Positions 3,029 to 18,492 of a DNA stretch of 18,492 bases are shown one piece after another. Position 1 is the stretch's first letter, and each line of letters opens with the position of its first letter. The position numbers were made by a program, and so were the translations under genes. This DNA comes from Candidatus Heimdallarchaeota archaeon (GTDB taxonomy: Archaea > Asgardarchaeota > Heimdallarchaeia > Hodarchaeales > Hodarchaeaceae): contig CP070695.1 in assembly GCA_020353515.1 (NCBI GenBank), positions 2,886,639 to 2,905,130 on the forward strand. The letters run 5' to 3'. The notes beneath the pieces are model-generated. The model had not been told where the DNA came from. It did no database searches and was given only the letters and a program-made list of their open reading frames with translations.

Positions 3029-4912
3029 ATGCCTCTAAACAGCTCTAAAAAGGATTCTAAAGGAAGAACGTTTAAGTTTCAAGCTGAGATTCAACGAGTG
3101 CTAGACATTCTGATAAATCGTTTATATAAAAACCGAGAAATTTTCCTTAGGGAATTAATTTCCAATTCTGCTGATGCTTTACATCGGATGCGAATCGTAC
3201 AATTTGAAACGAAAGATTCTATCCTTGATCCTGATATTGAACTTGGAATTAAAATTACATTCGATGAGAATGAAAATACCTTAACAATTTCGGATACAGG
3301 CGTTGGAATGTCCTATCAGGAGATCAAGACCAACCTTGGTACTATTGCTCAAAGTGGAACTCTAGAATTTTTACAGCAATTAGAAGAGTCCCCTGATGCA
3401 ATTAACTTAATTGGTCAATTTGGTGTTGGATTCTACAGTTCCTTCATTGTGGCAAAGGAGGTTGTTGTCCGTTCTCGTTCGTATCCAGAAGATTCTCGAG
3501 GAGTAGAATGGCGATCCGACGGATCAGGTAAGTTTTCAGTCGCCTATGTTGACAAAGCTGACAGGGGAACTGAAGTTATTCTTTATCTAAAGGATGATAC
3601 CAAGGAGTTTGCTAATAGGTTTAAACTGGAATCCATTGTCAAAAAGTACAGTGATTTTGTAGGTTTTCCCATTCGTATTGCAGATGATGACCAAATTGTG
3701 AATCGTCAAGTTCCTATTTGGTACCAATCTGATGAAGTTACTGATGAAGAATTTAACGAGTTTTATCGTCAAGTGAGTTTAGATTGGACGGAACCTTTCC
3801 ATCGGATTCAACTAAACGTTGATGCTCCAATCCAATTTCGCGCACTGCTGTTTTTACCCAAACAACGCAGTCGAATGATGATGACATCTATGTATCAAGA
3901 TTATGGTCTCCGTTTATACAGTAAGAAAATCTTAGTTCAAGAAAAAGCGAAGGATCTTCTGCCTGAATACCTTCGATTCGTTTTTGGCGTGGTCGATAGT
4001 GAGGACCTTCCACTCAATGTATCCAGAGAAGTGATTCAGGTAGATCGAACTATACGTCGGATATCAAAAGTTATTACTGGCAGAATACTTGATGAGCTTG
4101 AGAAAATTGATGAGGATAAATATTTAGAATGGTGGGAACAATTTGGGGTGTTCATTAAAGAAGGCATTTCTCAAGATGAGAAACGACGTAAAAAGCTTCT
4201 AAATCAGCTTAGGGTAAGAACCTCAAAATCAGAAGATCAACTTATTGCCTTAACCAAATACGTTGAACAAATGCCGGATGTGCAGGAAGAGATCCTTTTT
4301 CTTCTAGGTGAAAGTCTCCCGATTCTAAAACGCAGTCCTCATTTAGAACACTATAGAAAAGTAGATCAAGAAGTAATTCTTTTCTCAGAACCTATAGATA
4401 GTTTCGTCGTTATGCATGTAACTGAATTTCAAGGTAAGAAATTCAAAGCTATTGACCAAGCAGAAGCGGAACCCTTTAAGGATGAGGATAAAGAGGAAGA
4501 AGAAACAAAGGAAGAGAAAGAAGAACCAGAGAAGGATCCATTCCTAACCCACTTAAAAGAAATACTAGAAGATCGAATTATTGATATAAAATATACTGAT
4601 TTTTTAACAGATAGTCCTTGTCGTCTTGTGAATCCTTCAGGCACTACAGCATTCACTCGAGTCTTAAAGTATATGGATGAAAACTATGTTCCTCAAAAGA
4701 AGATCATGGAAATCAATCCAGACCATTCTCTAATAATTAATTTAAATTCTTTATTTGAAAAAGACCCAGAGTCTCCTCTTATTCAAATATGTGCTTTCCA
4801 GTTGTTAGAAAATCAAGAATTAGCTGAAGGATCGTTACAAGATCCGACTGATATGATTAAACGAGTGAATCAACTGATGCAACAAGCCTTGGGAATAAAT
4901 CGAAATTCGTAG
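3029..4912 (+). CDS. htpG: Molecular chaperone Hsp90/HtpG
   Basis: FQAE, LYKNREIFLRELISNSADAL, DTGVGM, NLGTIAQSGT, IGQFGVGFYSSF, GVVDSEDLPLNVSRE, MEINPDH. No long N-M charged linker and no MEEVD, so HtpG/TRAP1 type. Confidence 0.97.
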   Translation: MPLNSSKKDSKGRTFKFQAEIQRVLDILINRLYKNREIFLRELISNSADALHRMRIVQFETKDSILDPDIELGIKITFDENENTLTISDTGVGMSYQEIKTNLGTIAQSGTLEFLQQLEESPDAINLIGQFGVGFYSSFIVAKEVVVRSRSYPEDSRGVEWRSDGSGKFSVAYVDKADRGTEVILYLKDDTKEFANRFKLESIVKKYSDFVGFPIRIADDDQIVNRQVPIWYQSDEVTDEEFNEFYRQVSLDWTEPFHRIQLNVDAPIQFRALLFLPKQRSRMMMTSMYQDYGLRLYSKKILVQEKAKDLLPEYLRFVFGVVDSEDLPLNVSREVIQVDRTIRRISKVITGRILDELEKIDEDKYLEWWEQFGVFIKEGISQDEKRRKKLLNQLRVRTSKSEDQLIALTKYVEQMPDVQEEILFLLGESLPILKRSPHLEHYRKVDQEVILFSEPIDSFVVMHVTEFQGKKFKAIDQAEAEPFKDEDKEEEETKEEKEEPEKDPFLTHLKEILEDRIIDIKYTDFLTDSPCRLVNPSGTTAFTRVLKYMDENYVPQKKIMEINPDHSLIINLNSLFEKDPESPLIQICAFQLLENQELAEGSLQDPTDMIKRVNQLMQQALGINRNS

Positions 4913-4987: not shown

Positions 4988-6013
4988 ATGCCAAGGAATG
5001 ATACAAAAAAAGGCACTAGTGCGACTGAGGGGTTGATTATAACCATTTTTGAGGATTATGGTCCTCAGAACATCTATAATTCTTCTCCATTATCTGAGGA
5101 AGAGGCTTTCAATCTTGCTATTAAATCTTTAACTGCACTAAGTTCAGATATTCCCCAATTTGGAGAGATTCGTTCTTATGGACCAATACCAACACCTCGG
5201 GATCCCTTCTTAACAATTGGATTCATTTTTTCTTTAAAAGCAGTGGATTCTGAAGATGTTCGTATTACTCAGTTTGGTAGAATAGTAGTTTTTTGGGTCA
5301 TAACGCGATCTAGCTCAACAGTAAAATATGTTGGTGTTCTAAAGCAATTGTTACGGAGAACAATTCGGTCATATAAGATACGTACAGATATTGATCTTAA
5401 TAATAAGGAAGTATTGAAAAAAATTGATGAGAAATTGCAGATTATAGAGACTGGTATTGAGTCGTTTTATTTAACAGATAGGGGGACGTTTGAACCTTTT
5501 TTAGAACTCGCTCTTCTTCCTACAAACGCTCCAATTATGTTGGTCGATAACCCAAATAAGCAGATAAATGTTTTATTACGAGAAGAAGTTACACCTTCAC
5601 TTAAACTTAATATGCTACATCTTACTAAGAATTTCGCGGGGAAACTGCCCAAAGGATCCCTCTACAAAGTAGAAATTATATCAGATGAGTTAACTGTTCA
5701 AAGAATGCTTTCTAAAATTGGGTTGATCTCTCAAACCGAAACAGGCTTTCAATATCGAATCCGATTTACCTCTCAACTCTCCTACGATGAAGTTGATGAA
5801 TGTTTAAATTCTCTCTTTACTCAGAAAAGACAATCATTGGCAAAATTGATTGTCCTTTCATATGAGAAGAAATCTCCATTAAACCTTGAGGAGGCTGCAG
5901 TTCAAACAGGAATTTGTGAAGCAATGGTAAAAGATTTAATTTTTGGTTTAATAGATGTTGGTCTTGTTAAAAATGGGAAAATCGAGAATGGCTTTTTAAG
6001 TTTCAATAAGTAG
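4988..6013 (+). CDS. Longin/uDENN-like + possible gelsolin-like + C-terminal winged-helix (PCI-like) protein, paralog 1
   Basis: 341-aa ORF colinear with 6101..7138. IITIFEDYGPQ hairpin; FIFSLKA..DVRITQFGRIVVFWVI; C-terminal LNLEEAAVQTGICEAMVKDLIFGLIDVGLVKNGKIENG. CDS is secure; domain calls are inferred. Confidence 0.65.
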   Translation: MPRNDTKKGTSATEGLIITIFEDYGPQNIYNSSPLSEEEAFNLAIKSLTALSSDIPQFGEIRSYGPIPTPRDPFLTIGFIFSLKAVDSEDVRITQFGRIVVFWVITRSSSTVKYVGVLKQLLRRTIRSYKIRTDIDLNNKEVLKKIDEKLQIIETGIESFYLTDRGTFEPFLELALLPTNAPIMLVDNPNKQINVLLREEVTPSLKLNMLHLTKNFAGKLPKGSLYKVEIISDELTVQRMLSKIGLISQTETGFQYRIRFTSQLSYDEVDECLNSLFTQKRQSLAKLIVLSYEKKSPLNLEEAAVQTGICEAMVKDLIFGLIDVGLVKNGKIENGFLSFNK

Positions 6014-6100
6014 ATTTGTGGCTAAGCAGATTACTTATTATTTCAGCCTCAGATATAAAAAAAATATGAATCAGAGTTTTAAGAAATGTAGGTTTAAGCC

Positions 6101-7138
6101 ATGAGTAAGGAAAATACGTCTAGTGGAAGCACAATAACAGATGGTTTAATTATTTCAGTTTTTGAAGATAATGGTCCTGTTAATGTATATAATTCTTCCC
6201 CGTTAAACGAAAGTGAAGCATTTAATATGGTTTTAAAGGCATTACCAGCAATAGGCTCTGATGTTCCACTAGAACATGGGGAAATACGTTCATACGGGCT
6301 TATACCAACACCCAAAGAACCTTTTTTATGTTTAAGTTTTATTTTTATGCTGAAAGCAGAGAAAACAGATGACTCTAGGATTGCTCGTTTTGGACGAATA
6401 ATAGTATTCTGGATAATAACAAGATCTTCTGCCCTAATGAAATATATTGGACTTATCAAGCGCATGATTAGGCGAGAAATTCAAATTTACCACATTAAAA
6501 CTGATACTGATCTGAAAAAAGAGGAAATTATGAGAAAGATTGATAAGAGAATCCAAATCATTGAAGTAGGTATTGAGAGTTATTATATCTCTGATATGAA
6601 TTCAATTGAGTCATTTTTAGATCTTGCATTTGTTCCTAAAGAAGCGCCAATTATGTTGGTGGATAAGCCAAATAATCAAATTAAGGTGTTATTGAGAAGC
6701 CATTCTAATCCGAGTAGAAAAATGGAATTATTACAGTTAGTAAACGATTATAAGAGAAACATTCCAAAGGGTACGATCTATAAAACAGAAATAATCTCTG
6801 ATTCTCTTACAGTTCAACAATTATTAGCTAAGACTGGTTTTATTACTCAATTTGATATTGGTACTACCATTAGACTTCGATTTACTAATGAGCTGACCTT
6901 TGAGGAGCTTGACAGCTTTTTTAACTTTCATCTTACACCTAAAAGGCAGCAGTTGGTTACTCAAATTATACAAGCTACTGATAGCAAAATTCCATTAAAT
7001 CTGTATGAATTATCGGTCCAAACCGGGATAACAATGGAATTAATTGAAGAGTTTATTGCGAGTGCTATAAACTCGGGATTAATTCAAGATTTCGAAATTA
7101 AGAATGGATCCCTTGTTTTTATAAAAGAAGTGGAATAG
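6101..7138 (+). CDS. Longin/uDENN-like + possible gelsolin-like + C-terminal winged-helix protein, paralog 2
   Basis: 345-aa ORF sharing YNSSPL, EAFN, GEIRSYG, IPTP, FGRI, FW-ITRSS, APIMLVD, PKG, EIISD, PLNL and QTGI with paralog 1. Confidence 0.65.
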   Translation: MSKENTSSGSTITDGLIISVFEDNGPVNVYNSSPLNESEAFNMVLKALPAIGSDVPLEHGEIRSYGLIPTPKEPFLCLSFIFMLKAEKTDDSRIARFGRIIVFWIITRSSALMKYIGLIKRMIRREIQIYHIKTDTDLKKEEIMRKIDKRIQIIEVGIESYYISDMNSIESFLDLAFVPKEAPIMLVDKPNNQIKVLLRSHSNPSRKMELLQLVNDYKRNIPKGTIYKTEIISDSLTVQQLLAKTGFITQFDIGTTIRLRFTNELTFEELDSFFNFHLTPKRQQLVTQIIQATDSKIPLNLYELSVQTGITMELIEEFIASAINSGLIQDFEIKNGSLVFIKEVE

Positions 7139-7201: not shown

Positions 7202-8113
7202 TTATAAAAGACCTCGAACGATATTGGCGATTTGTTCCATTTTAACAAGCACATAATGAAGAGGTGCGACCTTCTTGGCAATTCCAGTAAGAAGGAGTTC
7301 CTCTTTAATTTTATGAAAGACAAACATATAATCATCTGTTTCTAAAGTCGTTTTAAAGGTAACTTCAGTCTCGAACTCAGTTTTAATTCTATCGTAATTA
7401 GTTAACCAGAGATTAGCTGGAAGGATGATTCTTTCCACTAATTCACCCTCTTCAAATACAGGTAATCCATCATCAGTATATATTGCGATTCCTGATAGCT
7501 CGCTATGTTGTTTGATGAATTCCTGTATTGCATCAGATACAGTTTTTGCCTTTGTACTCTGGAGTATTAATGTTTGTATCATTTCACCAATAGCCAAGTA
7601 TATTGATTGATCAAAGATTGAAGTTTTACGATAATAAATTTTAATATCTTTGACAGGAATAAAATACTGTTTCATGGTTTCACTAACTTGCTCACGCATA
7701 TCAGGCAGTAAAAGATCAAGTTTATGAAATAAGCAAAAAACAATGGCGCTAGGAGAAAACTCTGCCAGTCTATTTACTGCGTGATCAAAATAAAATTTAC
7801 TTGTTGAGACTTGATCAAAATTACTAACATCAACTACCCAAACAAGAATTGTAACATCACTAAATATGAATTCAGCCTGTTCTCCGACAAATACAGAAAT
7901 AAAACTCTCTTGGCCACCACAATCAAAAATCTGGAATGCACTATCAATGATGCTTTTTGTTGAACGCGTGTAATTTATTGTCGCAGAATAATCTTTTACA
8001 TCCTCTGGTGATTTTCCTTCGAAAACTACTGACCTAATGCTACTCTTACCACTCGCTCCAAGTCCCATGAATAGTACTTTTTGCGCTGGAGGTGTTATTG
8101 TCAATAACTTCAA
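7202..8113 (-). CDS. Rag/Gtr1-family (RagA-like) small GTPase with C-terminal roadblock-like domain
   Basis: G1 KVLFMGLGASGKSSIRSVVF, G2 SATINY, G3 FDCGGQ, G4 FCLFHKLDL, G5 KTSIFD match RagA/Gtr1 motifs. C-terminal LSGIAIYTDDGLPV...LLLTGIA is roadblock-like. The true start may be TTG at 8104, which has GAGG 9 nt upstream. Confidence 0.9.
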   Translation of the reverse strand: MKLLTITPPAQKVLFMGLGASGKSSIRSVVFEGKSPEDVKDYSATINYTRSTKSIIDSAFQIFDCGGQESFISVFVGEQAEFIFSDVTILVWVVDVSNFDQVSTSKFYFDHAVNRLAEFSPSAIVFCLFHKLDLLLPDMREQVSETMKQYFIPVKDIKIYYRKTSIFDQSIYLAIGEMIQTLILQSTKAKTVSDAIQEFIKQHSELSGIAIYTDDGLPVFEEGELVERIILPANLWLTNYDRIKTEFETEVTFKTTLETDDYMFVFHKIKEELLLTGIAKKVAPLHYVLVKMEQIANIVRGLL

Positions 8114-8510: not shown

Positions 8511-10730
8511 TTGCAAATGTCTGAATGGGTGTCTGAATCTGAAATAACGGCTCGATTGGGTTATAAAATATTGATTGCTGGCTTAAGTGAAGCTGGGAAG
8601 ACTGCCGTAAAAAGAATTTTCTTTCTTAAACAGCAGACTGAAGATGTTGATAGTCTTTCGGCTACAATCAATTATGAAAGGATGTCACTTACGATCCATG
8701 ATACACCAATCACGATTGTAGACCTTGGTGGACAGAAGATATTCTTAAAACGATTCTTAAGCGGATTTAGCCCATTTGTCTTCAGTAGTGTGAAAACTTT
8801 TGTTTTTCTAATTGATGTGGCCAATAAAACTTCTCGGAATAATGCAATTCAATATTTTCAATCTTGTCTCGAAAAACTCTCAACTTTTTCTCCTGAAGCC
8901 ACAATCTTCGTTTTTCTACATAAAAACGATTTAGTAAGAGACTCACCTAATTATGAAAGTATTCATGAACAGTTAAAGGAACAATTTCAACTAGAATCTT
9001 CCCAAAAACTCAGATTTTTTCGAACTACAATTTACAGACCAGAAACAGTTATTAATAGTTTCGGGCGCATTTTTGAACTAACTATTCCCCAATTAGCTGA
9101 AAGTGAGTTTGTTGATTTTAAAACAATAGGTACAATTGAAGAACATCATGAAGAAGATATGACAATACGAGATTCAACACCTAAAGCTGAAATAGATCAA
9201 AAACCCGAGCCAATTTCTCCTACTGCTCCCAAAATAGCTGGCAATCAAGTAATCTTGAAGAAGTTACAAGGTTTGATGCAGCAAGCTGTAAAAAAAGAGT
9301 TTCCATCAGCATATCATTCCCCAAACCAAATGTCTCAAAAAGCCATATTTCTTGGAAATGCTGCAACAGAAGAATCTACTACGGAAACAATCTTAACTTC
9401 AGCAAAAGTGGTGGAGGAAACACCCACTTCTCCACAAATAGAAACCCAGCCGCATTCTACGCCGGTAGATGAAGAATCCATTGCATCTGAAGCTCAAGAA
9501 ATATTGAAACACGAAATAACAGAAATAAATCCCCAAATCAGTCATTTGGTGGACTTTTTCCGAATAGAAGCAAACGAAGCTGTAGAGATCGTTAATACTG
9601 GGTATGGCGATGTTTTTGAAATGGCAGTTACATCAGGGATTCCAATACCACTTGTAACTGATGTCATGTTGAAATATTTACCCTTTATTCAAAAATCACA
9701 AGGACTTGAGAAATATAAGCTAATAAATCGGGAAAAGTTATTAGAATTATTTCATGTTTTCTTGAAAGGACAATTACAAGAAAAAGATATAGTTAAATGC
9801 CTTGTATTAGTAACAGAAAAACCTAAAATGAGTATTGATGATATTGCAAAGAACTATCTCACTCCAAAGAAAAAGGTAAAAAAGAAGAAAGAAATCAAGG
9901 AGAAAATCCCGCTTGACTTTGCAAAACTAGACATCCCTGTTGAAGCAGAAAGTGTTGAAGGAATTATTACTTTACCCGATACTCAGGGAATGGGCTTTAA
10001 AGTCGAGATTATTAAACCAGAATGTTTGAATGCTCGTTTAACATTCCATTTACAAGGCCCTGTTGGCCAACGAGAACTTATTGGAAGCTCAATAGTTTCA
10101 ACTAAGATTACAAGTCAAGAGATCCTTTATCTTTTAGCTTACGAGATGAATATGACAGGATTGGGTATTTTTGAAGATGGAATCGGTTCTATGAATTTCG
10201 CTGCAAAGATAATTCGTGAGGCAATCCAACAAGTTCGTGAAGAGAACTTAAGCTCCACATCAGAGGTAAAAACCAAGAAAATCCGAAAAGAGGAGGGATA
10301 TCTGACTGAAACCATAAGTTTCATTATTCCTATGGAGATTAAAATTGAGGAAAATCACATTCTCATCCCTGACAGTGAGAAGGTAGCTTTTTTAGTAGAA
10401 AAAGCTAAGAAAGGGCTATTATTAAGTTTCGTCCAGCGAGGTTTTCCCATAGGCCAAGTAAATGTTGCAGACTCCATTACTGTTCCTCAAATTCGAAGAT
10501 TATTAAAAGAAGCAATGCAGATACCAATTGAGTCAGAAGGAGCCGTTGATTTTGCAAGTCGTATTATCCATGCTGCTATAAGAAGTCTAATTGAATCACC
10601 AGAAGCAGTACTTCCAATTAAATCAACAAAAATCCAACCTAAAATTATAGAAAAACCTGTTTTAGAAGAACCAAGAGATGAGACGTCAGAGAAACTCTTG
10701 AGTTACCTAGAACTTCTAGAAAAAGACTGA
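8511..10730 (+). CDS. Rag/Gtr-like GTPase with long C-terminal extension (linker, helical domain, two repeated alpha/beta domains)
   Basis: KILIAGLSEAGKT, SATINY, DLGGQ, FLHKNDL and FRTTIY in the first ~190 aa. Start is TTG 8511 or ATG 8517. Confidence 0.85.
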   Translation: MQMSEWVSESEITARLGYKILIAGLSEAGKTAVKRIFFLKQQTEDVDSLSATINYERMSLTIHDTPITIVDLGGQKIFLKRFLSGFSPFVFSSVKTFVFLIDVANKTSRNNAIQYFQSCLEKLSTFSPEATIFVFLHKNDLVRDSPNYESIHEQLKEQFQLESSQKLRFFRTTIYRPETVINSFGRIFELTIPQLAESEFVDFKTIGTIEEHHEEDMTIRDSTPKAEIDQKPEPISPTAPKIAGNQVILKKLQGLMQQAVKKEFPSAYHSPNQMSQKAIFLGNAATEESTTETILTSAKVVEETPTSPQIETQPHSTPVDEESIASEAQEILKHEITEINPQISHLVDFFRIEANEAVEIVNTGYGDVFEMAVTSGIPIPLVTDVMLKYLPFIQKSQGLEKYKLINREKLLELFHVFLKGQLQEKDIVKCLVLVTEKPKMSIDDIAKNYLTPKKKVKKKKEIKEKIPLDFAKLDIPVEAESVEGIITLPDTQGMGFKVEIIKPECLNARLTFHLQGPVGQRELIGSSIVSTKITSQEILYLLAYEMNMTGLGIFEDGIGSMNFAAKIIREAIQQVREENLSSTSEVKTKKIRKEEGYLTETISFIIPMEIKIEENHILIPDSEKVAFLVEKAKKGLLLSFVQRGFPIGQVNVADSITVPQIRRLLKEAMQIPIESEGAVDFASRIIHAAIRSLIESPEAVLPIKSTKIQPKIIEKPVLEEPRDETSEKLLSYLELLEKD
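9927..10589 (+). repeat. Protein-level tandem duplication of a ~90-105 aa domain
   Basis: Copy 1 (~9927-10235): IPVE..IITLPDTQGMGFKVE..IGSSIVSTKITSQEILYLL..MNFAAKIIREAI. Copy 2 (~10320-10589): IPME..HILIPDSEKVAFLVE..IGQVNVADSITVPQIRRLL..VDFASRIIHAAI. Confidence 0.75.
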
Positions 10731-17140: not shown

Positions 17141-18492
17141 TTAATTTTCTTCTGTAATTAGTTCAGTTGTCCCATAAATCTTTTCATATGATAACACGAT
17201 TGACGAGACTAATTGTCTCAATTTAAAGACTTTACTACGAATTTTGTTCTTGTCTGAATCCTCATTGTCCATAAGTTTGTGTATTGCGTGTATTTTCCCT
17301 TTAATCTCCTCTTTGAAAGATTCAACTAATGGGAATAATTCTTGATGAACTAAAATGTTACAAGTAAGATTCTCTTGGCCTCCTCTAGCAGTTGGCCGTT
17401 CTAACGCGTACCCAAAACTCAGTACACTAGTACGAAGACCTCGGGCTAATACAAAGTCATAACTAGAAGGGATCTCAGTATCAAAGTCATCACAAAAGCC
17501 AGTACCACTAAAAGATCGATCAGAAAGGTCCACCAGCTTTGAAAAGTTATCTTTCAAAATTTCTGGTATAACTATAATTGGGATAGGCCCGTGTCGTTGG
17601 TCGAAAAACGATACCACTACCCCAATTGTGTGAGAATCAAGTGATGCCATTACTTCAGCTTCAGAGATATCTGCAATTTTATCAAGGACTAATTCTTTGT
17701 CAAGACCAACCAATTCGGGTTTTCGAATGAATTTCACATATACAACAGAACCGAAGATTGCAACGAAAATAGTGATCCCAACAATAAGCAGGACAAATGT
17801 GGGTTCAATACCTGCTGATATATAATTAAAGCGGGTTTCACTGATGCGATCAGGATCATCTAGTATATCATAAGCAATACCACTATTTCCCGCGCTATCT
17901 GTGGTTACAATATAGTACAAAATATCTCTACTCGTACCATTATGATCAAAGGGAACAGTGACCTTATAAATCGGAACACCGTCCGTAGTGGTATTATGAT
18001 AAACCATACTTGCTTTTCGGTATAGTTCCGCCTCCTCTTGGCTAATAGATGATCCTAATCCTGCTAAAGACTGGGTAGTTTCGTTGGATGCCTCCCTAAA
18101 GTAGTAATAAATCGATACATCGGTAATGTCAGACCCATATTCAAGAATTCCAGTGTAAAAAGCAATTTCTGTGGGATTACTTGGATCATCAAGCTTGTAT
18201 CTCGTTAACTCCTTTTTCACTCGGGGGGGAGTTAAATCCTTTACTGTCAAGTTGAAGGTCACTTGTGAAATAATATCATATTGTCGCAAGTTTTCACTGG
18301 AATTGTATTCTACTGTGGCGATTGCTTTAACAACGATGACCACTGTTGTCTCAAGATATTTTTCGAGCTTTTCGATCGGAATTTGATAGTGTAAATTCCA
18401 GAGATTACCAATTGATGCTTTATCAAAGTAATCAGAGTCCGTTACATTATCATAGTATTTTATTGTGAATTCAACTTTGAAATCTTCCTCTG
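17141..18492 (-). CDS. Single-pass membrane protein: beta-rich ectodomain, TM helix, cytoplasmic folliculin/SMCR8-like longin (uDENN) domain; 5'-partial
   Basis: The frame stays open beyond GTG 18343 to the window edge (..EEDFKVEFTIKYYDNVTDSDYFDK..). Ectodomain has N-x-S/T sequons (NVT, NSS, NLT, NET, NTT, NGT) and VKDLTPP. TM FVLLIVGITIFVAIFGSVVYV (~17729-17797) is followed by KFIRK. Cytoplasmic part has VVVSFFDQRHGP and ERPTARGGQE. Confidence 0.8.
   Translation of the reverse strand, partial: EEDFKVEFTIKYYDNVTDSDYFDKASIGNLWNLHYQIPIEKLEKYLETTVVIVVKAIATVEYNSSENLRQYDIISQVTFNLTVKDLTPPRVKKELTRYKLDDPSNPTEIAFYTGILEYGSDITDVSIYYYFREASNETTQSLAGLGSSISQEEAELYRKASMVYHNTTTDGVPIYKVTVPFDHNGTSRDILYYIVTTDSAGNSGIAYDILDDPDRISETRFNYISAGIEPTFVLLIVGITIFVAIFGSVVYVKFIRKPELVGLDKELVLDKIADISEAEVMASLDSHTIGVVVSFFDQRHGPIPIIVIPEILKDNFSKLVDLSDRSFSGTGFCDDFDTEIPSSYDFVLARGLRTSVLSFGYALERPTARGGQENLTCNILVHQELFPLVESFKEEIKGKIHAIHKLMDNEDSDKNKIRSKVFKLRQLVSSIVLSYEKIYGTTELITEEN

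Follow-up and report, generated by a model that had tools for sequence, protein, structure and literature searches.

Two adjacent genes in an 18,492-nucleotide stretch of the genome of Candidatus Heimdallarchaeota archaeon (contig CP070695.1; this whole stretch is called the window below) encode paralogous longin proteins, copy 1 (famA) and copy 2 (famB), and lie tail to tail with a gene for a RagA/Gtr1-like GTPase, Rag303. Their family is genuine, conserved and linked to Rag genes; it belongs to the class of longin proteins that carry a Gly-Pro (GP) motif together with a candidate arginine finger, and it has an unusual architecture in which the longin domain is followed by a gelsolin-like domain and a winged helix. 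Judged from sequence comparison and a structural model, these proteins most likely regulate the adjacent RagA-like GTPase, probably in the role of GTPase-activating protein (GAP), a reading in which our confidence is about even.

Domain structure and motifs of the tandem paralogues

The products of copy 1 (P0001) and copy 2 (P0002) were aligned end to end by BLASTP, with 174 of 342 positions identical (51%), one gap and an expectation value (E) of 4e-133. This likeness is far beyond chance and confirms the full-length tandem duplication, coordinates included, that an earlier note on this DNA had proposed from the sequence alone. Identity between the copies is 57% in the longin domain, 54% in the gelsolin-like domain and 40% in the winged helix. 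The domains were delimited in an AlphaFold2 model of P0001 (mean predicted local distance difference test score, pLDDT, 79.9; predicted template modelling score, pTM, 0.52), and the layout of copy 2 was inferred from its full-length identity to copy 1.

The N-terminal domain of the model has the longin strand order. When its core was compared with about 48,000 PDB representatives, and again with the Foldseek top 1000, the best fold matches were GATOR1 chains (9o5a_H, score 9.9; 9o5d_D, 9.6; 9v0j_A, 9.6; 8fw5_B, 9.1; 7t3a_B, 8.9). The longin-like N-domain that the earlier note had suspected is thus seen in both strand order and fold matches. The middle domain has the gelsolin fold in the model (a beta-sheet, a long helix, a strand and a short helix); a database search with this domain alone gave no usable match. 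The C-terminal segment, described earlier as resembling a winged helix-turn-helix (wHTH) or PCI domain, is modelled as a winged helix whose best fold matches are protein-binding PCI-type domains (DDRGK1/UFL1 and the COP9 signalosome), and weak Pfam PCI matches occur in 25 of 47 family members (best E 4.6e-4). In its N-terminal longin and C-terminal winged helix the model resembles the NPRL2/NPRL3-like layout proposed for the pair; the proposal had missed the gelsolin-like middle domain, and the winged helix is single.

Both translations contain the FEDxGP and DxRIxxFGR motifs at the residues previously assigned to them. Conservation was evaluated in two alignments. The first (A1) holds 47 sequences, namely P0001, P0002 and 45 of the other 62 family matches, with fragments and close duplicates left out; in copy 1 numbering, G25, P26, D90, R92 and G97 are kept in 47/47, R98 and D23 in 46/47, and F21 in 44/47. 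The second (A2), with 38 sequences from the wider family including distant relatives of about 250 residues, has G25, P26, G65, D90 and R92 invariant in all 38, and R98 is replaced in several rows. Because R92 alone is invariant, it is favoured over R98 as the putative finger residue. In the P0001 model, residue 22 is the last of beta1 and G25 the first of beta2; beta4 covers residues 75-84 and beta5 residues 98-106, and R92 is located in the loop between these two, which agrees with the proposed position of the arginine before the last longin strand.

Neither P0001 nor P0002 matches a Pfam family at E<=0.01, and 30 distant relatives gave no longin-type Pfam family at E<=0.1. A Pfam scan of the 47 members at E<=10 returned no longin, Folliculin or NPR2 model among the 25 of 48 matched families that were listed. 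The A1 and A2 profiles, compared with PDB sequences at E<=10, gave only wHTH and gelsolin matches and none to longin, FLCN or NPRL2 proteins.

Linkage of the family to Rag GTPases

The convergent neighbour had been called RagA-like, and profile comparison bears this out. Rag303 matches Pfam Gtr1_RagA with E 1.8e-39, and its family profile, compared with PDB sequences, scores far better against Gtr1 (5e-39, positions 4-288 of 300) and RagA (4e-37) than against RagC (1e-18), with Gtr2 at 1e-13. The Gtr1 alignment spans the C-terminal roadblock part. The P-loop, DxxGQ and HKxD motifs are present and are invariant in alignment A3, including the switch-II Gln. On these scores Rag303 is closer to RagA/Gtr1 than to RagC and is predicted to consist of a Rag-type G domain with a C-terminal roadblock domain. 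Its gene ends 63 bases from the end of copy 2, and copies 1 and 2 are co-oriented and 87 bases apart.

The family was searched in two protein collections. A word-indexed search of 5.8 billion proteins returned 63 proteins at E<=0.001, one of them P0001 itself, with lengths of 224-359 residues; their taxon labels are all Asgard (Hodarchaeales/Hodarchaeota, Heimdallarchaeota, Thor-, Odin-, Hermod- and Promethearchaeota) except for one labelled only 'bacterium'. An exhaustive HMMER pass over 1.84 billion representatives with P0002 returned 52 proteins at E<=0.001, 10 of them at E<=1e-30, the weaker matches being proteins of about 250 residues that have the first two domains in common. Among 400 genomes of the phylum, full-length members were found in 18 of the 22 in the family-level group of the window (the window genome, G000, included), partial matches were found in both genomes of the sister family, and the other 376 had none. 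Two copies are present in 7 of these 18 genomes and one copy in 11 (25 genes in total), although completeness of the metagenome-assembled genomes is 70-99%, and second copies may have been missed in some genomes counted here as single-copy. The tandem arrangement occurs only in G000 and G081, and the tandem pair is a lineage-restricted duplication.

Linkage to Rag303 was counted in two sets. Out of 19 public loci with a family member, 16 have it tail to tail with a Rag303 orthologue; L011 and L017 end at a contig edge, and L009 extends 3.3 kb beyond the longin gene without a Rag303-type gene. In the 18 genomes, 17 of the 25 genes are directly convergent with a Rag303-family open reading frame (ORF), two lie upstream within a tandem pair, and two stand at a contig edge and could not be assessed. 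One genome contains two different longin-Rag pairs (L019 and L024). In a tree of the Rag proteins, the GTPases beside famB-type genes (window, L007, L012 and L013) form a group (Shimodaira-Hasegawa-like approximate likelihood ratio test, SH-aLRT, 94) that mirrors the famB clade of the longin tree.

A shorter paralogous family is also linked to Rag genes. Its members, of about 265 residues, consist of a longin and a gelsolin-like domain without the winged helix, carry xDxGP and DxRIxxxGR motifs and are present in 20 of the 22 genomes; at 20 of 20 loci a Rag303-like ORF lies 15-35 bases downstream on the same strand. In the window genome, the 265-residue paralogue is 17 bases upstream of a Rag303-like GTPase of 309 residues, on the same strand (L005/L030, G000:C1:4151190-4154984). 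At one locus, L044 (G062:C98:3455-4249), the 265-residue paralogue is split into two ORFs by one in-frame TAA and could be a pseudogene or the result of a sequencing error.

The winged helix might suggest that the longin proteins are DNA-binding regulators with an N-terminal sensor domain, their Rag adjacency being incidental. Weak wHTH matches (Lrs14-like, E 0.011; Lrp/AsnC-type, 0.03; HTH_24 and MarR in a few members) are of this kind, and so are the language-model neighbour clusters 'winged helix-turn-helix transcriptional regulator' (0.87) and TrmB (0.76), both under the guide value of 0.9. However, the best fold matches of this domain and the weak Pfam matches in 25/47 members are to the PCI type, and the shorter family keeps its Rag linkage without any winged helix. 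We therefore regard a DNA-binding role as highly improbable.

Comparison with longin GAPs and mode of action

In published longins, the GP motif is located where the beta1-beta2 loop ends or beta2 begins, adjacent to the arginine finger; FLCN, NPRL2, SMCR8 and C9orf72 are reported to have it, and FNIP2, NPRL3, adaptins, TRAPP and DENND proteins to lack it (PMC12290439). The same paper (Traffic 2025) reports the GP and Arg motif pair in 15 Asgard longins and asks whether their client is an ArfR or a Rag GTPase. The family described here has the longin fold and the GP motif of this class (G25-P26 in 47/47 and 38/38 sequences, beta2 from residue 25), and its candidate finger R92 lies, in the model, in the loop where the GAP fingers of Avl9-type monomeric DENN proteins are predicted, between beta4 and beta5 of the longin domain (bioRxiv 10.64898/2026.01.05.697756), so that the topology fits.

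Compared by description, the published Asgard longins resemble the present family in longin fold, GP at the beta1-beta2 turn, a nearby conserved Arg and Heimdall-group hosts, as well as in being suspected GAPs, for which Rag or ArfR are candidate clients; the present family adds the gelsolin-like domain, the winged helix and the conserved Rag neighbour (PMC12290439, as far as its available text describes them). Our literature search, with subscription journals outside its scope, found the general class and neither the longin/gelsolin-like/winged-helix architecture nor its Rag linkage. Two further systems close to this one differ in architecture: the Lokiarchaeota Roadblock-Longin protein (dimeric longin domain, PDB 8yqg) combines roadblock and longin, and the Asgard gelsolins (Thorarchaeota ProGel, PDB 7c2f, and 2DGel) contrast with a gelsolin-like domain that is here embedded between longin and winged helix.

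Among eukaryotic systems, there is a close likeness to NPRL2-NPRL3 of GATOR1/SEACIT, the GAP for RagA/B and Gtr1, which is also a paralogous pair with an N-terminal longin, a C-terminal winged helix (Levine 2013, PMC3747258) and a RagA/Gtr1-type client. The present proteins differ from the available descriptions of that pair in having a single winged helix in place of at least two and an inserted gelsolin-like domain, and they differ further in that GP and Arg are present in both copies and a single copy is enough in most relatives. Unlike GATOR1, no DEPDC5/Iml1-type third subunit was detected: the Pfam NPR2, NPR3 and IML1 models had no match in the whole genome (96% complete, single contig) at E<=10. 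FLCN-FNIP2 (Lst7-Lst4), the GAP for RagC/D, differs in its DENN domain after the longin, which the present proteins lack, in their neighbour being closer to RagA, and in their having no Pfam Folliculin match.

The only Pfam Folliculin match in the genome is a different protein of 433-439 residues, encoded elsewhere: a 439-residue ORF at L026:1692-3011 (G000:C1:680191-681510; E 2.8e-4, 21.1 bits, below the cut-off of 23.3), for which no counterpart match exists in the present family. It follows a Roadblock/LC7-like gene (L026:639-1133). NPRL2-like longin proteins and an operon of roadblock, Rab-like GTPase and DENN genes have been reported in Asgard archaea (Liu et al., bioRxiv 10.1101/2020.10.19.343400), and the L026 genes may be that DENN/roadblock module. 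Most listed members of the L026 longin family (alignment A5) have precomputed Pfam Folliculin (PF11704) matches, and the family has invariant F21, G26, P27 and R94 within an FDEEHGP motif and a D-x-x-A-R-G loop. Comparison of A2 with A5 by hhalign (probability 73.5%, E 3e-5, 129 columns) brought the two GP motifs into register, and likewise the two loop Asp residues, which gives moderate support for common ancestry of the two longin domains.

Taking these comparisons together with the gene linkage, we propose that both genes code for regulators of the RagA/Gtr1-like GTPase next to them, each built of three domains, with a longin of the class that includes FLCN, NPRL2 and SMCR8. The longin would dock on the switch face of GTP-bound Rag303, and the invariant beta4-beta5 Arg (R92 in copy 1, R93 in copy 2), beside the GP turn, would be inserted towards the gamma-phosphate, so that GTP hydrolysis would be sped up, as by a GAP. 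The remaining domains, the gelsolin-like one and the PCI-like winged helix, may serve as adaptor modules to other partners, actin being one guess.

Several points weigh against this proposal. In the hhalign comparison, the probability was only moderate, and R92 was placed two columns before the A5 residue R94, with R98 on a non-invariant Arg, so that the equivalent Arg is unsettled; copies 1 and 2 go unmatched by the Pfam models for Folliculin, NPR2 and NPR3. Longin domains are more often platforms for guanine nucleotide exchange factors (GEFs). Four of the 25 family genes are found among unrelated genes, with no Rag303-type ORF in 1.2-3.3 kb downstream, and the longin genes are convergent with Rag303 and are therefore not co-transcribed with it. 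The linkage counts come from close kin, and the 19 public loci and 22 genomes overlap, so they are not independent events; the genome with two pairs and the shorter Rag-linked family are independent of this last objection.

The proteins could instead bind Rag303 without being GAPs, the longin acting as a platform, GEF or effector/scaffold (compare TRAPP, Mon1-Ccz1, DENN proteins and Ragulator-type roadblock dimers) and the invariant Arg being structural. Gene linkage alone does not tell the kind of regulator, and GEF-like roles have been proposed for Asgard DENN/longin modules in the accessible text of Liu et al. (bioRxiv 10.1101/2020.10.19.343400). However, the combination of GP and a beta4-beta5 Arg is reported to occur only in the GAP class and to be missing from GEF-type longins (PMC12290439, available portion), and it is invariant across two paralogous Rag-linked families. 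We consider this alternative rather unlikely, yet the most serious of those weighed here.

The earlier note had gone further and taken the two copies as a heterodimeric GAP, possibly with only one catalytic subunit; in its strict form this would be an obligate longin heterodimer like NPRL2/NPRL3 or FLCN/FNIP with the finger supplied by one partner. The tandem, co-oriented genes only 87 bases apart would suit such a complex, as would the greater divergence of the winged helices (40% identity), and all three eukaryotic longin GAPs are described as heterodimers of paralogous subunits (PMC8213707; PMC12290439). The idea of a single catalytic subunit is not supported, however: GP, D-x-R and G-R are present in both copies, whereas the eukaryotic non-catalytic subunits FNIP2 and NPRL3 are reported to be without GP (PMC12290439, available portion). 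In addition, 11 of the 18 genomes have one full-length copy and only 2 have the tandem form; the sole copy next to Rag303 belongs to the famA type in the L008 and L010 genomes and to the famB type in L013, a complete chromosome; and in four genomes the second copy is elsewhere, among unrelated genes. An obligate heterodimer is thus improbable.

Both copies are signature-complete and one copy is enough in most relatives, and therefore two redundant or specialised regulators, acting as homodimers or as an optional heterodimer, are likelier than an obligate NPRL2/NPRL3-like pair. The pair would have arisen by duplication within one Heimdall/Hodarchaeales-type family, each copy retaining a complete catalytic signature. 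The family tree contains a famA group (window, L007a and L008-L011) and a famB clade (window, L007b, L012 and L013; support 86/88). Because its backbone is unresolved, with 8 of 23 inner branches open, we cannot choose between an old tandem duplication followed by differential loss and a later acquisition of the HSP90-famA block.

Neighbouring genes and implications

The features of the window, whose overall G+C content is about 34%, are collected in Table 1.

Table 1. Genes, domains and motifs of the window (residue numbers refer to the protein named in the row)
Feature	Position	Strand	Basis
Two sulfotransferase-type genes, first in the gene order of the window			Pfam and ORF list
HSP90 gene	3029-4912	+	Pfam and ORF list
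Copy 1 (famA, P0001), 341 residues	4988-6013	+	ORF and translation
Copy 1 longin core, residues 13-128, beta-beta-alpha-beta-beta-beta-alpha	5024-5371	+	Model
Copy 1 GP motif, F21-E-D-Y-G25-P26	5048-5065	+	beta1-beta2 turn/start of beta2 in AlphaFold2 model
Copy 1 loop D90-V-R92-I-T-Q-F-G97-R98, candidate arginine finger R92	5255-5281	+	beta4-beta5 loop in model
Copy 1 gelsolin-like middle domain, residues 155-247	5450-5728	+	Model
Copy 1 C-terminal winged helix (PCI-like), residues 275-341	5810-6010	+	Model
Copy 2 (famB, P0002), 345 residues	6101-7138	+	ORF and translation
Copy 2 GP motif, F21-E-D-N-G25-P26	6161-6178	+	Translation; invariant in alignment A4
Copy 2 loop D91-S-R93-I-A-R96-F-G98-R99	6371-6397	+	D91, R93 and G98 invariant, R99 at least 90% in A4
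Rag303 (P0003), RagA/Gtr1-like GTPase, 303 residues, C-terminal roadblock part	7202-8113	-	Pfam Gtr1_RagA
Rag739 (P0249), long Rag-type GTPase, 739 residues, N-terminal Rag-type G domain	8511-10730	+	Pfam Gtr1_RagA
Tubulin/FtsZ-like gene, then ORFs of 1140 and 311 residues	10781-16539	-	Pfam Tubulin, E 5.8e-19

About 40 bases ahead of the second ATG, the 87-base spacer between the copies (6014-6100) has a TATA-like run rich in A/T, noticed by eye and unscored; copy 2 may thus have a promoter of its own. Upstream, an HSP90 gene directly precedes the famA-type copy on the same strand in 6 of 6 famA loci (the window, with a 75-base gap, and L007-L011), and the 8 kb upstream of the remaining family loci contain none. 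An interaction between FNIP1 and HSP90 is reported for eukaryotes (PMC12026037, available portion); the HSP90-famA adjacency may be a coincidence.

Rag739 is divergent from Rag303 and matches Pfam Gtr1_RagA over residues 19-196 (E 9e-31; RagA 3e-19). Of the 16 public loci with the longin-Rag303 pair, 11 also have a Rag739 orthologue beside Rag303. A low-confidence model of its C-terminal 410 residues (pLDDT 62.5, 9 sequences) contains a helical domain resembling GatB/YqeY and two beta/alpha repeats without a match; no roadblock domain is among the matches listed, and only residues 549-578 align, briefly and weakly, with the Rag303 profile in its roadblock part. A RagA/RagC-like pairing of Rag303 and Rag739 through roadblock domains is unsupported. 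In the complete chromosome of L013, the Rag739 orthologue is only a 235-residue ORF (L013:10426-11133; 94% identity over 181 residues) and may be truncated or frameshifted.

The ORFs of 1140 and 311 residues beyond the tubulin/FtsZ-like gene have no Pfam match. A tubulin gene and a large ORF also come after Rag739 in L012 and L015. In L018 and L023, two Rag303-family genes flank the longin gene, one convergent and the other about 2 kb upstream, and both loci contain a very large ORF related to the 400-residue ORF at 17141-18343 of the window.

GP/Arg longins of Asgard archaea have already been published (PMC12290439), so the gain here is incremental, and the tandem pair is a modest addition; measured against the available text of that paper, the results bear on its question of which GTPases the GP-motif longins of Asgard archaea act on. 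In MK-D1 ('Ca. P. syntrophicum'), roadblock and longin genes generally do not share operons with GTPase genes, which makes it hard to pair regulators with GTPases (Tran et al. 2024). The present locus gives concrete longin-Rag pairs in a Heimdall/Hodarchaeales-type lineage: a longin protein of about 340 residues tail to tail with a RagA-like GTPase, and, elsewhere in this genome, a relative of 265 residues placed directly upstream of another GTPase of Rag-like type.

The gelsolin-like domain hints at a connection with actin, a feature that the portions of the literature consulted do not describe for eukaryotic Rag GAPs. A bolder picture, which we think improbable, has the locus as a minimal Rag switch of pre-eukaryotic type with its GAP physically tied to the cytoskeleton: the RagA-like GTPase would be switched off by the GP/Arg longin, with the gelsolin-like domain binding Asgard actin and the PCI-like domain recruiting partners; in the lineage of the window, the tandem duplicates would then represent an early stage of the subunit specialisation seen in NPRL2/NPRL3 and FLCN/FNIP. 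The duplicates themselves provide a natural experiment on the origin of paired longin subunits, and the longin-Rag pairs make it a testable question whether arginine-finger longin GAPs for Rag GTPases are older than eukaryotes.

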